A DNA stretch of 11,419 nt from a virus (Duplodnaviria > Heunggongvirae > Uroviricota > Caudoviricetes). Position numbers and translations under genes: made by a program. Shown here one piece after another: positions 1 through 7,556 of this stretch (position 1 is its first letter; each line of letters starts with the position of its first letter). The notes beneath the pieces were generated by a model, which saw only the letters and a list, made by a program, of their open reading frames with translations, ran no database searches and was not told the DNA's origin. Location of the stretch: the IMG/VR virus record IMGVR_UViG_2648501437_000008, one strand, 5' to 3'.

Positions 1-253
1 CCTGTGGGCCTGCCGGGCCTGCCGCACCGGTATCTCCCTTTGGACCCTGTGGACCTGCATTTCCCGTCAGACCGGTCTCTCCCCGCTCTCCCCTGTCACC
101 TTTCGGCCCCTGCGGGCCTGCCGGACCAGCATCACCTGCCGGTCCCCGCTCACCGGTTGCCCCGACAGGACCGGTGTCACCACGCTCTCCCTTATCACCC
201 TTCGGCCCCTGAGGACCCGCGGGCCCCGGTTCCCCCTTTGGCCCGGGAGGTCC
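1..253 (-). repeat. Collagen-like Gly-X-Y triplet repeat region inside stf (at least 28 consecutive triplets, continuing past the window edge)
   Basis: Minus-strand translation of 253..2 reads [84 protein letters not shown]. At DNA level this gives short direct repeats such as gggcctgccg gggcctgccg near 8..25. Confidence 0.8.
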
Positions 254-1003
254 CACCACGATGGGGATTCGGTTTACGGCCTCTTCCGCCGCTATCCTGC
301 TTTGTTCCGCTGACTGTGCGCTTTCTGCTGACTCCCGGGCTTTTTCTGCTGCGGTCGTTGCATCCCTGGATGCATTACCGGCTGCACTTTCTGCCGTCTT
401 TCTTGACAATTCAGCTTCTGCTGCACTTTGTGATGACTCACTGGCTTTTTGAGCGGCCGCAGAAGCCGAGGACGAGGACGCATCCTCTGACTGCTTTGCT
501 GAGGCTGCACTTTCTGCCGCCTGCCGGGCTGACTCCGATGCATCCCCTGCTGAAGTGTCAGCATTTGCAGCGCTCGCTTCCGCCTGACTGGCTGATATGC
601 CGGCATTCCTCGCTGACGTCTCCGCCTCTCCGGCATTCTTCTTCGCCTCCTCAGCGTGACGCGCCACCTCTTCCACCATCAGTTCAAAACGGCGCAGTGC
701 CTCCGGCCGGACATCATCCTCCGTCATTGCACCGAGGAAATCATTCAGTGTGCCCGGCTTTGAGTCCTCATACACGGTGATAATCCCGGCATGTGACGGC
801 GGAAATCCCTCCACCAACAGAATGACGCTGTACTGACCGTACTCAACGTCCATGCTGTAACGACCGGCTTCATCCGGATTTTCAGAGGCCACCGTGTTCA
901 CCACCACCGTGCTGCTGGTCCGTCTGGCCTTCAGCTGAATGGTGCAGTTCTCTACCGGTTTTCCTGTGCCGTCTTTCAGTACACCTGAAATCTTTACTGC
1001 CAT
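1..1003 (-). CDS. stf: Side tail fibre protein Stf, N-terminal ~334 codons; the 3' end of the gene lies beyond the window start
   Basis: ATG at 1003..1001 preceded by GGGGTGA Shine-Dalgarno-like motif. Manual translation of the minus strand gives [62 protein letters not shown]..., which matches my recollection of the lambda Stf N-terminus. It continues into an Ala/Ser/Glu-rich low-complexity segment and then uninterrupted Gly-X-Y triplets, open to the window edge. Absent from the ORF track because no stop lies inside the window. Confidence 0.85.
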
Positions 1004-1014
1004 ATTCACCCCAC

Positions 1015-1040
1015 AAAAAAGCCCGCCTGAACCGGCGGGC
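1015..1040 (-). terminator. Rho-independent terminator downstream of lom, between lom and stf
   Basis: Perfect 7-bp GC-rich inverted repeat: gcccgcc (1021..1027), 6-nt loop tgaacc, ggcgggc (1034..1040). On the minus-strand RNA the stem is followed directly by UUUUUU (plus-strand aaaaaa at 1015..1020). The plus-strand side has no U tract after the stem, so it is unidirectional for the minus strand. Confidence 0.75.
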
Positions 1041-1067
1041 TGTCATAACACTGTGTTACCTGGCTAA

Positions 1068-1667
1068 TCAGAATTTATAACCGACACCCACGATGAAACC
1101 GTCAGTGCGCCAGTCGCCACTGCCGGAGCCTTCATAAGCAATATCAACGGCCACGGATTCGGTCGGGTTAAACTGCACGCCAGCTCCCCACGCCAGAGAG
1201 GTGTCGCTGTGGCGACCGTCATCACTTCCGGTCAGCACATCGTGCGTTTTCCCCTTGTTGTCAGTTACGCGAAGATAATCCCCGGAGAAAGTCGACACAC
1301 GGCTGTAAGCCACACCCGCCATCGCATACGCGCTGAACCATTCATTCACGCGCACAGACGGCCCCGCCATTACGCTGAACCAGCGGTTACGCACGGAATC
1401 TTCATGCCAGCGGGTATCGCTGTAACGGGTAAGCTGGCGATTCTTGTCTCCTGCATAGCTGAATGACGTCACCAGCCCCAGCGTGTCCGTAAATTCATAA
1501 CGGTATTTCACGTTAATCCCGTTAAGATTATCGCTACCGGGAGCGTTCGTCCGGGCATGAAGATACCCCGCGCTCAGTGTGGACTGATGTTCAGACGCCC
1601 ATGCAGGCGCACCGGATACGGACAGACAGATGGCTGCGGACAAAATGGCTGCACAAACTTTACGCAT
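1068..1667 (-). CDS. lom: Outer membrane protein Lom (Ail/Lom/OmpX-family beta-barrel), a lysogenic-conversion moron
   Basis: 199-aa ORF with an N-terminal signal peptide ([24 protein letters not shown]) and C-terminus ...[25 protein letters not shown] ending in aromatic Phe, as expected for an outer membrane beta-barrel. Matches my recollection of lambda Lom. ATG at 1667..1665 with GAGAGG Shine-Dalgarno 5 nt upstream. Position immediately downstream of J is syntenic with lambda. Confidence 0.93.
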
Positions 1668-1695: not shown

Positions 1696-1723
1696 AAGGC
1701 ACCATTCCTGACGCCACTTATAG
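1696..1723 (-). other. Weak hairpin plus U-tract in the J-lom spacer (possible leaky terminator or RNA structure)
   Basis: Minus-strand RNA reads GGCGUC-AGGAAU-GGUGCC-UUUUUUAUU: a 6-bp stem with two G-U wobbles followed by six U. Much weaker than the terminator after lom. Confidence 0.25.
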
Positions 1724-1737
1724 GGGTTATAAAAATT

Positions 1738-4700
1738 TCAACGAATACTGATGCCGGAAGCGGCTTTTTTGGTCACAATCACCGTACAGTCGGTGATATT
1801 ACCTGCCCACTGATTGCCTTTATGGAAAACCTTAAACTCCAGAGTGACGCTACCACCACCACTAGACATATCAATAACCGCACTGTAACTACCGGGAATG
1901 GCCCCTTTAGTTTCTCTGGATGCGATTAATACACCGTTTTTGCGAACTTCAAAACCATAACCCGTGTAACTTGTACCTCCCGGGTTATTACCACTTCCCG
2001 GATAGCTATACGCTATTCCGTTAAAGATAATGGGCGGAATAATGATTTGACGGTCAAAGTTATGATCATCACTGATGGTGACTGTAACCGTCCCGTTTGG
2101 TGTTTCCGTGTTACCCCACGTACCAGCCTGTTTCGGAAATGATTTGGATACAGCTTTAACGAAATCACCTCTGACCTGAGTCGCCTCCAGCATGCCCTTA
2201 ATCGTACAGTTTTCATTTACCGTGACATTGTTGAGCGTCCCGGCGTTCGCATTCACACTGCCACTGATATCCGCATTTTTAGCAGTCAGCTTTCCGTCTG
2301 ATGTCAGGGAAAATGCCGGTGGATTGCCACCGCTGGTAATGGTGGGGGCCGTCAGGCGCTTCAGGAACACGTCGTTCATGAATATCTGGTTGCCCTGCGC
2401 CACAAACATCGGCGTTTCATTCCCGTTTGCCGGGTCAATAAACGCGATACGGTTAGCGGCAACCAGAAACTGGCTCAGCTTGCCTTCCTCCGTGTCCTCC
2501 ATGCTGAGACCAATACCCGCGACATAATGTTTGCCGTCTTTGGTCTGCTCAATTTTGACGCCCCACATGGCATTCCACTTATCGTTAGCGTCCTTCCACT
2601 CTTTCGAAAACTCCTCCAGTTTGCTGGCGTTATCCTCCGTCAGCTCGACTTTTTCCAGCAGCTCCTTGCCGAGATGGGATTCGGTTATCTTGCCTTTGAA
2701 AAAATCCAGGTAACCTTCCGCATCATCGCTCGCCCGACCGACGGCCTCCACGAATGCCGATTTGCCAACGGTGTTCACACTGCGGATATAAAAGTAATAA
2801 TCATGGCCCGGTTTGATATTGATACTGGCGGCTATCCAGTACAGCCCCGTGCCAAGGTAGCGGGCTGTGGTTTCAACCTGCCTGATATCGGTAATCCGCT
2901 TTTCCGAGAACCAGAACTCAAACTGTACCGTCGGATCATAAACAGCAAGATGCGGCGTCGCAGTTATCTGAAAATAGCCCGGCGTCAGCTCAATAGTGAC
3001 AGGCGCTGCCGGTGCCGCAATCCGGAACGATACCGATGCCGGATCGCCCTGCTGCCCCCACGCATTTACCGCCCGGACTGTCAGCCTGTAACGCCCCAGC
3101 GCCAGTTGCGTGAAGCGGTATGTGGTTTCCGTCGTCCGGGCCGTGCTGACCAGCCGCTCACTGCCGTCATCCGCGGCCACGGTCAGACGAAGCAGAAAAC
3201 TCACCCCCTTCACCACCTTCGGCGTGTCCCAGCGCGCCAGCACCTGATACTCCCCGCTGTCTGCGGTGACTTCGGCAGTCAGGTGCTGCACCGCTGGCGG
3301 CGTGACACCATTCACCGTGCCACTCTGGTCGCCGTCAAAGTGCGCCCCGTTATCCACGATGGCCTCTTTTTCCGGCACATGCTGCACGGCGGTGACAGCA
3401 TACGTGCCGTCGTCGTTCTCACGGACACTCACGCAGCGGAACAGGCGCTGGCGCAACGTCGGCAGCTTCAGCCCCCATACGCTGTATTCAGCAACACCGT
3501 CAGGAACACGGCTCACTTTTACCTTCACGCCGTCGGTGACGGACTGAACCTCCACGCTGACCGGATTGCCACTTCCGTCAACCAGGCTTATCAGCGTGGT
3601 ACCGGAGGATGGCAGCGTGATTTCACGGTCGAGCGTCAGCGTCCGGGTCTGGCTGTTCACCGCCAGCACACGACCACCGGTGCTGATACCGGCATAGTCA
3701 TCATCACAGATTTCAATGACATCGCCCGGCACATGGCGAAGCCCTTCGGCACCCACGCAGAAGTCCACGGTCTGCGTTTCCAGCAGTTCTGTTTTAATCA
3801 GCCACAGCCCGGCGCGGTGCGCCTGCCCCCGGCTGGTACAGCCAAAAGCATCCATCTTCGTGACGTTACGACCGTAACGGACAATGGCCTGCGTATCCTC
3901 AACAAGCTCTGTCGCCGTCTCCCAGCCGTTATCCGGGTCAATCCAGTTCACCTCAACGGCATTATGGCGGTCTTTCAGGGCGCTAAAGCTGTAGCGGAAC
4001 GGCGCGCCATCATCCGGCATCACCACATTACTGCGGTTATAGGTCCACACCTTATCCGACGGCCGGTCCTGCACGAACGTCAGCGTCTGCCCGTTCCATA
4101 CCGGCATACAGCGCATCGCCGAGCAGAAATCACTGAGCACATCCCACGCCTTGCGCTGTGTGGTCAGGTACGCATTACAGGTGATGCGCGGCTCCGTGCC
4201 GCCAAAGCCGTCCGGCACCGACTGGTCGCAGTACTGGCCGATGACATACAGCGCCCATTTATCCACATCCGCCGCACCAAGACGTTTCCCCATGCCGTAG
4301 CGCGGGTGGGTCAGCATATCCCACAGACACCAGGCCATGTTGTCGCTGTACGCTGGCTTAAACGTTCCGTCCCAGATACCGCTGTATTGCCGCGTCTGCG
4401 GGTCATAGTTCGACGGCACCTGCAGAATGCGCCCGCGAAGATGATAATTACGGCTCACCTGCTGGCTGCCGAACTGCTCAGAGTCCACCTGCACGCCGAC
4501 CAGTGCCGTGTTCGGGTAGCACTGTTTCACATCGATGATTTCGGTATACGAGGACCAGATTGTTTTGTTCTGCAGCTGGTCTGTGGTGCTGTCCGGCGTC
4601 ATCCTGCGCATCCTGATACTGAACGGTCGCGGCGGCAGCTTATCCACCACCACCGAGGCCAGATACTGTGAGGTGGTTTTGCCCTTAATGGTGATGTCTT

Positions 4701-5151
4701 TTTCCGTCACCCAGCCACCATTACGTTGTATCTGAACCAGCAGGCGAACTTCCGACGGATTCCGGTCCCCCTTTGAAGTGGTTTCCACCAGTGCCTGCAC
4801 ACCGAAGGTCAGGCGCAGACGGTCGATGTTTGCCGACGTGATGGTCCGGGTGAGCGGATTGTCATATTTTAATTCTGCACCGATAACGGTTTCTGAACCG
4901 GAGGATTCAAATCCCTCCGGCGGTGTCTGCTCCTGCTCACCTGCCCGGAACACCACCGTGACACCGGAGATATTGGTATTCCCCTCACTGTCCAGCACTG
5001 GCGTACTGTTCAGCAGCACACTTTTTAATCCATCCACCGGACCTTCAATCGGCCCTTCACTGATGGCGTCTATCACGCTCAGCAGCTGGGATGATTTCAG
5101 GTTGTCCTTCGCTTCGCGCGGGGTATGCCCCTTACTGCTGCCTTTACCCAT
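1738..5151 (-). CDS. J: Tail tip / host specificity protein J (central tail fibre), about 1137 aa
   Basis: Translation from ATG 5151..5149 ([20 protein letters not shown]...) matches the lambda J N-terminus and most of its length as I recall it. GGAG Shine-Dalgarno 8 nt upstream. The track start at 5196 is a GTG further upstream and is rejected. Stop TGA at 1740..1738. The C-terminal ~150 aa differ from lambda J. Confidence 0.93.
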
Positions 5152-6528: not shown

Positions 6529-7227
6529 TTACTGCGAAAGTTTGTTAATGGAAAGGAAACCGCCAAAGTTGCCGACGTTATTGCGAAACTTACAGCCGCT
6601 CAGGCATTTGCTGCATTTATCCTTCGTGATATCGGACGTCGGCTGGTCATATTCATCCGCGACCGCCGGACCGTGATAACCGCACTCATCACCGCGATAG
6701 GTCCAGGTACAGGTGTTGGCCAGCATGGTGCGCCCCGGAAAAACAGCGCCATCCGTTTCCGTCGGTGTGGACAGCACAAAGCTCGCGCTGACCGAGCTCA
6801 GTTCGCTGCACTGCTCAATGCGCCAGCGGCTGATCACCTCCTGCTCAGGATCGGCGTCACTGTTTCCGTTGACGAAATTCACCGCATCCAGAAAACGGGC
6901 GTAAACCTTACGCCTGACCACCGTTCCGCCGACCAGGCTCTGCAAATCTTCCACCATCCCGGTGACCATGCCGTGCAGATTAGAGACTTTCAGCGTTGGC
7001 CTGGCGCTGGCTCCTTTACCGTTCATCTCAAATCCGCTCCCCTGAATGGGGTACGCCTGATACTGTCGCCCCTGCCAGGTGACCGGCTCACCTTTTTCGT
7101 TCTGCTCATTGCAGAAAAAATAACGTTCTCCACCGACCTCTGTCAGATCGATTTCCCAGAGCACCACGCTGGCCGACTGCTCCGCACGGGTGCATTCATT
7201 CAGTGTTTCCTGCCGGATATCCTGCAT
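6529..7227 (-). CDS. L: Minor tail protein L (tail tip complex), 232 aa
   Basis: Translation MQDIRQETLNECTRAEQSASVVLWEIDLTEVGGERYFFCNEQNEKGEPVTWQGRQYQAYP... matches lambda gpL, including the Cys-rich C-terminus (CSKCLSGCKF). The ATG at 7227..7225 overlaps the M stop codon (ATGA). Confidence 0.93.
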   Translation of the reverse strand: MQDIRQETLNECTRAEQSASVVLWEIDLTEVGGERYFFCNEQNEKGEPVTWQGRQYQAYPIQGSGFEMNGKGASARPTLKVSNLHGMVTGMVEDLQSLVGGTVVRRKVYARFLDAVNFVNGNSDADPEQEVISRWRIEQCSELSSVSASFVLSTPTETDGAVFPGRTMLANTCTWTYRGDECGYHGPAVADEYDQPTSDITKDKCSKCLSGCKFRNNVGNFGGFLSINKLSQ

Positions 7228-7556
7228 CAGTTCACCACCTGTTCAAACTCTGCGCTGAACTCAACACGCAGCATACTGACCCGCGACGACCATTTTGCGC
7301 AGGTCACCTTTATCTGCCGCCACTCATAAGGCGGCGTCCACAGAAAGGCTTTCCAGCCCCCGTGCTCAGCCAGAAACGACTCCAGCGCCGTGGCCTCCCA
7401 ACGGGGAACAGAAAACGTCACGCTGTACGTTTTCAGGTTGGAATTCAGCCCGGCAGGCGCTCGCTGGGAATAGCCATCACCAAAGCGCACCTTTCTTACA
7501 GAAGGGGCCGAAGCCACATCCATACCGGGTTTCACTTTCCAGCGGAAGGTTTTCAT
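7227..7556 (-). CDS. M: Minor tail protein M, 109 aa
   Basis: Translation MKTFRWKVKPGMDVASAPSVRKVRFGDGYSQRAPAGLNSNLKTYSV... is near-identical to lambda gpM as recalled. ATG 7556..7554 overlaps the H stop (ATGA). GGAGG Shine-Dalgarno at 7567..7563, 6 nt upstream. Confidence 0.93.
   Translation of the reverse strand: MKTFRWKVKPGMDVASAPSVRKVRFGDGYSQRAPAGLNSNLKTYSVTFSVPRWEATALESFLAEHGGWKAFLWTPPYEWRQIKVTCAKWSSRVSMLRVEFSAEFEQVVN

Follow-up and report, generated by a model that had tools for sequence, protein, structure and literature searches.

The left end of the window, that is, of the whole 11,419-nt stretch of DNA that was analysed, carries an open reading frame in which a lambda-like tail fibre N-terminus leads into a long collagen-like repeat and which runs out of the stretch without a stop codon. 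The question raised by this locus (1–1003, minus strand) is whether the frame encodes a new fusion protein, a decayed one or part of a known fibre. The gene is a collagen-like prophage side tail fibre gene of the EPclA type, which was characterised in 2012 (PMC3368898), and not a new fusion. Positions 1–1003 very probably represent the 5′ three-quarters of an EPclA-type stf from a lambdoid Escherichia coli prophage, truncated where the contig ends. This assignment is based on the open frame, on Pfam matches to PF08400 and PF01391 and on a nucleotide identity of 97.8% to a gene for a 437-aa protein.

The frame starts at an ATG (1001–1003) and continues for 334 stop-free codons to position 2. 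The window is the complete contig JHSO01000105.1 of the E. coli draft assembly GCA_001266005.1; stf is therefore cut by the contig end and not by a biological break. The interruption inside the collagen repeat is an assembly artefact, and it was apparently at this multi-copy tract that the short-read assembler broke the sequence. Of 5426 complete E. coli genomes, 4741 contain DNA related to positions 1–1100, at a median of two and a maximum of 16 places per genome; such DNA also occurs in 364 phage records, mostly those of Stx-converting phages. No exact copy of this segment was found, the closest match reaching 97.8% among the complete E. coli genomes and 97.0% among the phages searched; compared with the searched collections, the whole window is a mosaic of about 95% similarity. 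This copy of stf is a new allele, and nothing beyond that. Both ends of the contig lie within lambdoid tail genes, the left one in the stf collagen tract and the right one in the G/T region, and breaks of this kind are typical of assemblies split at multi-copy prophage sequence.

The same DNA contains a long ORF on the plus strand (4–780, 258 aa). Were this the true gene, the Gly-X-Y pattern on the opposite strand would be a by-product, but such a reading is scarcely credible. The plus-strand ORF has no Pfam match, as against an E-value of 1e-69 for the minus-strand frame, and annotated homologues by the thousand follow the latter. Antisense ORFs of such length are also to be expected in GC-rich coding DNA for Ala/Gly/Pro-rich proteins. 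The candidate was rejected as an antisense artefact without a family match.

The 437-aa gene belongs to the closest relative among complete genomes, NZ_CP066032 (locus L001), where it is annotated as a prophage tail fibre gene; the window copy differs from it at 24 of 1002 nucleotides, with no indels. Its product consists of an N-terminal phage_tail_N domain (PfN), a 116-aa Ala/Ser region, 37 Gly-X-Y triplets (111 aa) and a C-terminal Phage_fiber_C domain (PfC; PF06820, E-value 1.9e-36). These lengths and this domain order are the same as in the EPclA entries of Ghosh et al., who listed the 437-aa EPclA with a 116-aa coiled-coil region (PCoil) and a 111-aa collagen region (Col) for seven prophages of strain EDL933 and seven of strain Sakai (PMC3368898, Table 2). 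According to the same work, recombinant EPclA of O157:H7 Sakai is a trimer, its Col has a collagen CD spectrum and a melting temperature of 42 °C, PfC serves as a trimerisation module from which the triple helix is nucleated anew, and the molecule has the shape of a dumbbell with a hinged stalk (PMC3368898).

Directly downstream of stf in L001 is an 89-aa ORF that consists of a PF06820 domain (E-value 9.9e-35). A PfC-only ORF of this length is located 2 nt after the stf stop codon in all five EPclA loci examined (L001 5419–5688; L003 2654–2923; L004 1817–2086; L005 2717–2986; L006 2618–2887), and two 494-aa homologues, P0016 and P0018, are apparent fusions of stf to it. In L001 and three other lom-linked loci, the order lom–stf–89-aa ORF is followed by type III effector cargo; in L004, a short contig, stf and the 89-aa ORF are present while lom and cargo are missing. 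Four of the five EPclA loci thus have genes of type III secretion effectors shortly after the tail fibre genes (L001 1583–3967; L003 3100–4080; L005 3174–4215; L006 3103–4116). They include EspW, a DUF1076 protein, NleB/SseK, NleG, a Peptidase_M91 protein and a SopA-like protein.

An earlier note on this DNA, made from the sequence alone, had likened the first ~60 residues to lambda Stf and assigned to them the anchoring of the fibre to the tail. Both statements stand, and the likeness extends further than had been noticed. PfN (phage_tail_N, PF08400) spans aa 1–133 (605–1003, minus strand) and is matched over profile positions 1–133 of 134 with an E-value of 1e-69. Compared with the PDB 9e7m chain, the ‘Tail fiber protein’ of Ur-lambda, 56 of the first 60 residues are identical, as are 85 of the first 94 (90%). 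The latter region (722–1003, minus strand) corresponds to the StfN collar domain, with an E-value of 5.9e-53 to PDB 9e7m/9mgh. Residues 1–94 of Ur-lambda Stf were resolved by cryo-EM in 2025 (PDB 9E7M/9MGH) and comprise a six-stranded β-sheet and a helix (PMC12617516). In the Ur-lambda collar, 12 StfN copies from four trimeric fibres form a ring around the gpV/gpM junction; the β4–β5 loops touch E63 of gpV and K2, W6 and R80 of gpM, and the collar is followed by a linker of about 10 residues and a trimeric coiled coil (PMC12617516). The docking partner of the collar, tail tip protein M, is encoded in the window at 7227–7556 (minus strand; E-value 6.2e-68 to lambda gpM, 8iyk/9e7m), and it retains K2, W6 and R80 at the contact positions. 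The StfN of the window would dock at the gpV/gpM junction, a prediction that is well founded by homology.

The minus-strand gene order, G/T-H-M-L-K-I-J-lom-stf, is that of a complete lambda-type tail module, in which stf is directly downstream of J and lom and is the last gene of the tail operon. Gene J (1738–5151, minus strand), recognised by J-specific Pfam domains, encodes the 1137-aa central tail fibre, or tip attachment protein, and its product exactly matches E. coli WP_052924419.1. The mechanically delineated ORF of J starts at GTG 5196 (1152 aa), whereas the start in the record and in relatives is ATG 5151 (1137 aa, MGKGSSKGH...); no exact record of the 1152-aa form was found. The lom gene (1068–1667, minus strand; PF06316, E-value 2.7e-121) encodes an Ail/Lom outer-membrane β-barrel. 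Between the lom stop codon and the stf ATG, a terminator-like GC hairpin with a T-run (1020–1041, minus strand) was found by consensus match alone; it has an eight-pair stem with seven GC pairs and a TTTTTGTGGG tail and lies 16 nt before the stf ATG. A similar hairpin with a T-run matches the consensus between J and lom (1698–1715, minus strand). This suggests that lom is bracketed by putative terminators, which late antiterminated transcription must pass.

The genetic context and the N-terminus also bear on a different view of the protein, namely that it is a bacterial surface adhesin or virulence factor in the manner of BclA from Bacillus or Scl from streptococci. In Gram-positive pathogens, proteins with collagen-like repeats attach to host cells and matrix, Ghosh et al. 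left a bacterial surface role open (PMC3368898) and, in relatives, genes of type III effectors lie just downstream. However, the visible N-terminus has neither a signal peptide nor an anchor and is instead a tail-collar domain, the gene closes a tail operon, and reported expression is tied to prophage induction. A surface adhesin is thus very improbable, and the protein is treated below as a side tail fibre.

The Ala/Ser/Glu-rich region that the earlier note placed after the N-terminus was located at aa 134–249 (257–604, minus strand), with 33% A, 22% S and 12% E. Its 116 residues equal the length of the EPclA PCoil. Fourier analysis of residues 101–249 revealed a 3.5-residue periodicity with a power of 4.0–4.6, compared with 1.5–2.0 for the 95th percentile of shuffled sequences. 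The heptad register continues without a break over about 21 heptads and already includes the last ~30 residues of PfN. The EPclA PCoil has been shown by experiment to be α-helical and trimeric (PMC3368898); by analogy, the PCoil of the window would form a trimeric α-helical stalk. Shorter coiled coils are found in homologues P0027, P0040 and P0069, with Col beginning at residue 210, 224 or 188, compared with 251 in the window. PCoil is thereby shortened by deletions of 41, 27 or 63 residues. The last of these equals nine heptads but the first two are both 6 mod 7, so the length differences are not always multiples of seven, contrary to the statement in the 2012 paper (PMC3368898).

The collagen-like tract, Col, occupies aa 251–334 (2–253, minus strand) and runs off the contig. 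The earlier note had counted at least 28 uninterrupted Gly-X-Y triplets, and there are exactly 28 up to the contig end. The match to PF01391 has an E-value of 1.6e-14 and a score of 53.8 bits, against a Pfam gathering cut-off of 27.2. Elsewhere in the 11.4-kb window, in any of the six frames, Gly-X-Y runs reach at most four triplets, and the chance expectation for a 28-triplet run is below 1e-21. Pro occupies the X position in 14 of the 28 triplets, while the Y position is taken by A (seven), K and T (five each) and Q and R (four each); GPK, GPA and GPQ occur four times each and GER three times. The EPcl proteins have a similar makeup: their commonest triplets are GPK, GPQ, GPA, GER and GET, with about 48% Pro at X, K/R/A/T/Q at Y and a GP(Q/P)-GPK-G(D/E) motif (PMC3368898). 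The 28 triplets are identical in amino acid sequence to the first 28 of the 37 triplets of L001, and the visible Col probably represents the first three-quarters or so of the collagen shaft. A triple-helical shaft of the collagen type, as proposed in the earlier note, has been demonstrated by CD, SEC-MALLS, ultracentrifugation and electron microscopy for EPclA proteins with this domain arrangement (PMC3368898). By this analogy, the Gly-X-Y tract of the window is likely to be a genuine collagen triple helix.

Beyond the contig end, the gene in all likelihood continues as in EPclA and ends with PfC, as judged from sequence similarity. The last 120 nt of the tract are 98.3% identical to EPclA, compared with 86.7% (gapped) and 69.6% to two EPclD loci, and the best 25 E. 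coli DNA matches are all EPclA-like. A continuation of the EPclD type would instead provide a self-cleaving Peptidase_S74 chaperone end, and a separate Gp38_N-like adhesin would cap the tip. The highest-ranking protein matches include homologues with S74 ends (498, 486 and 468 aa), with 85–88% identity and 93–100% query coverage; in Shigella and E. coli, such forms are found at the J-lom-stf position with a 170-aa Gp38_N gene behind them, and recombination within Col could attach either ending. Their sequences read GDRGETGLT...GPAGAPGPK, while the PfN and collagen signatures of the window, the latter of the form ...GPAGPQ, fit the PfC-ended forms. Together with the similarity of the last 120 nt, this makes the EPclD-type ending quite improbable. 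The 170-aa Gp38_N gene is located at 1709–2221 in L007 and at 3993–4505 in L008, each time after an EPclD-type fibre gene, which suggests that in EPclD a detachable adhesin similar to that of T2/T6 caps the collagen shaft after S74 self-cleavage. One S74-ended homologue, P0028 (486 aa), is labelled ‘collagen-like surface-anchored protein SclE [Streptococcus pneumoniae]’ and comes from a 3.5-Mb contig; this record is almost certainly mislabelled or contaminated.

A PfC-ended gene might still be a decayed copy of the kind denoted EPclA*, frameshifted or interrupted just past the contig end in a defective prophage. The survey of homologues and Table 2 of Ghosh et al. set a prior of about 10–18% for a frameshift beyond the contig end. 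Frameshifted homologues are frequent (P0099, P0102, P0106, P0112, P0085 and P0060), three of the 17 copies in Sakai and EDL933 are defective (PMC3368898, Table 2), and an IS2 element is found close downstream in L001. Nevertheless, all 334 visible codons are open, the amino acid sequence is conserved relative to intact copies, from which it is separated by the above nucleotide substitutions without indels, and the upstream tail module H-M-L-K-I-J-lom is intact. Decay of this copy is accordingly considered unlikely. There is also a small chance that the window copy bears a C-terminal tip of a kind as yet undescribed past the contig end.

Shaft length was surveyed in 120 cluster representatives from the protein search. 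PfC-ended forms account for 67 of them and have 5–37 triplets, with modes at 19 and 37; 28 representatives are Peptidase_S74-ended, with 7–38 triplets, and about ten are frameshifted inside the repeat. The copy number among relatives thus varies from 5 to 38 triplets and always in frame. Collagen lengths of 63, 78, 81, 111, 114 and 144 aa are listed for EPclA (PMC3368898). P0099, P0102, P0106 and P0112 are frameshift products in which the collagen DNA is read in another frame (…GGNRTSGTEGRPGG…), and one such product represents a cluster of 37 sequences. Loss of frame, or sequencing error, is therefore frequent in the G/C-rich tract as well.

As for the origin of this variation, the earlier note had suggested that the triplets create short direct DNA repeats open to slipped-strand or recombinational change. 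At the DNA level, the repetition is weak. Tandem Repeats Finder (TRF), run on 1–1100 with a minimum score of 30, reported two 9-bp repeats of two copies each, and there is an imperfect repeat with a 99-nt period (11 triplets) and 78–83% identity. Within the 333-nt collagen tract of L001, exact direct repeats reach at most 14 nt, and recurrences of a given peptide motif are encoded by different synonymous codons. Short direct repeats are thus present to a limited degree and a true tandem array is not; without such an array, the classical slipped-strand contingency mechanism is unsupported, and a contingency locus of this type was rejected. The recombinational part of the suggestion fares better. 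When four shorter alleles were aligned to the 37-triplet form, the deletions were 99, 162, 198 and 261 nt long, all multiples of 9, and their junctions fell within imperfect repeats of about 20 nt that code for GPQGPKGD or, in one case, GPxGATG. The breakpoints share 2–8 nt of exact sequence, an approximate figure, since each allele was compared with the 37-triplet form and not necessarily with its true parent. Junctions in dispersed imperfect repeats point to recombination or long-range slippage, and not to slipped-strand mispairing in a tandem DNA array.

It is conceivable, though improbable, that the collagen shaft serves as an evolvable ‘length ruler’, its reach being tuned to the thickness of the host O-antigen or capsule. 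Recombination between GPQGPKGD repeats might then add or drop in-frame blocks of triplets, possibly between co-resident prophages, and the range of 5–38 triplets would reflect selected host-range variation and not neutral decay.

The data are consistent with the following fibre architecture. Each fibre would be composed of three chains. The collar would be followed by a short linker and then by a coiled coil with heptad repeats, rich in Ala/Ser and some 150 aa in length (~20 nm). After a hinge, a collagen triple helix would follow, with 28 triplets visible and most likely 37 in total (~32 nm). A small C-terminal PfC trimerisation knob would nucleate and cap the helix and is presumed to contact the cell surface. 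The fibre may speed up reversible adsorption ahead of the binding of J to its receptor, as lambda Stf does. The trimeric state, the collagen and coiled-coil conformations, the dumbbell shape and the collar structure are attributed to the window copy by analogy with close relatives, and PfC presumably has a receptor-binding role in a fibre expressed on the virion. In the literature examined, there is no published micrograph that resolves EPclA-type fibres on virions of EHEC phages, and no receptor for PfC is reported.

The discovery value of the locus is small, since a 2012 study had already named and cloned the family and described its biophysical properties, and the N-terminal anchoring in lambda was solved in 2025. 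The locus exemplifies why short-read assemblies of E. coli with many prophages split inside the collagen tract, and an ‘stf’ gene that is cut short where a contig ends should not be taken for a pseudogene. The analysis also documents the range of shaft lengths, 5–38 triplets, and the location of breakpoints in short imperfect repeats.

Among known systems, the closest is EPclA (ECs2717, Z0982; PMC3368898), which shares with the window gene the order PfN-PCoil-Col, the 116-aa PCoil, the position in a lambdoid prophage, the preference for GPK, GPQ, GPA and GER, the GP(Q/P)-GPK-G(D/E) motif and, in the O157:H7 copies, about 97% of nucleotides. The window differs in having 28 of a probable 37 triplets and no PfC, owing to the contig end. 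EPclD and other S74-ended fibres resemble the window protein in PfN, PCoil and the N-terminal three-quarters of the collagen region (85–93% identity) and in their lom-adjacent locus; they differ in the S74 chaperone end, in the Gp38_N gene that follows and in diagnostic substitutions in PfN and Col.

Lambda Stf likewise has the collar, 90% identical over 94 residues, a linker and an Ala/Ser-rich trimeric coiled coil; its gene, too, follows J and lom, and it docks onto the same partner, gpM. Its coiled coil is much longer (residues 102–393) and is not followed by collagen, which EPclA relatives possess. Moreover, lambda Stf has Pf2 repeats, a distal OmpC-binding domain similar to T4 gp37 and a dependence on Tfa, all absent from EPclA relatives: the full-length relatives contain only PF08400, PF01391 and PF06820, with no Pf2 repeats or gp37-like domain, and no Tfa chaperone is found downstream of them, the EPclA loci having the 89-aa PfC-only ORF instead. 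More distant counterparts are Scl1/Scl2 of S. pyogenes and BclA of B. anthracis (BclA structure 1wck was matched with an E-value of 4e-8), in which a hydroxyproline-free Gly-X-Y helix is likewise nucleated by a globular trimerisation domain. Those proteins, however, belong to the cell surface or exosporium and have other terminal domains and Thr-rich triplets, whereas the protein of the window belongs to a phage tail and is rich in Pro at the X position.
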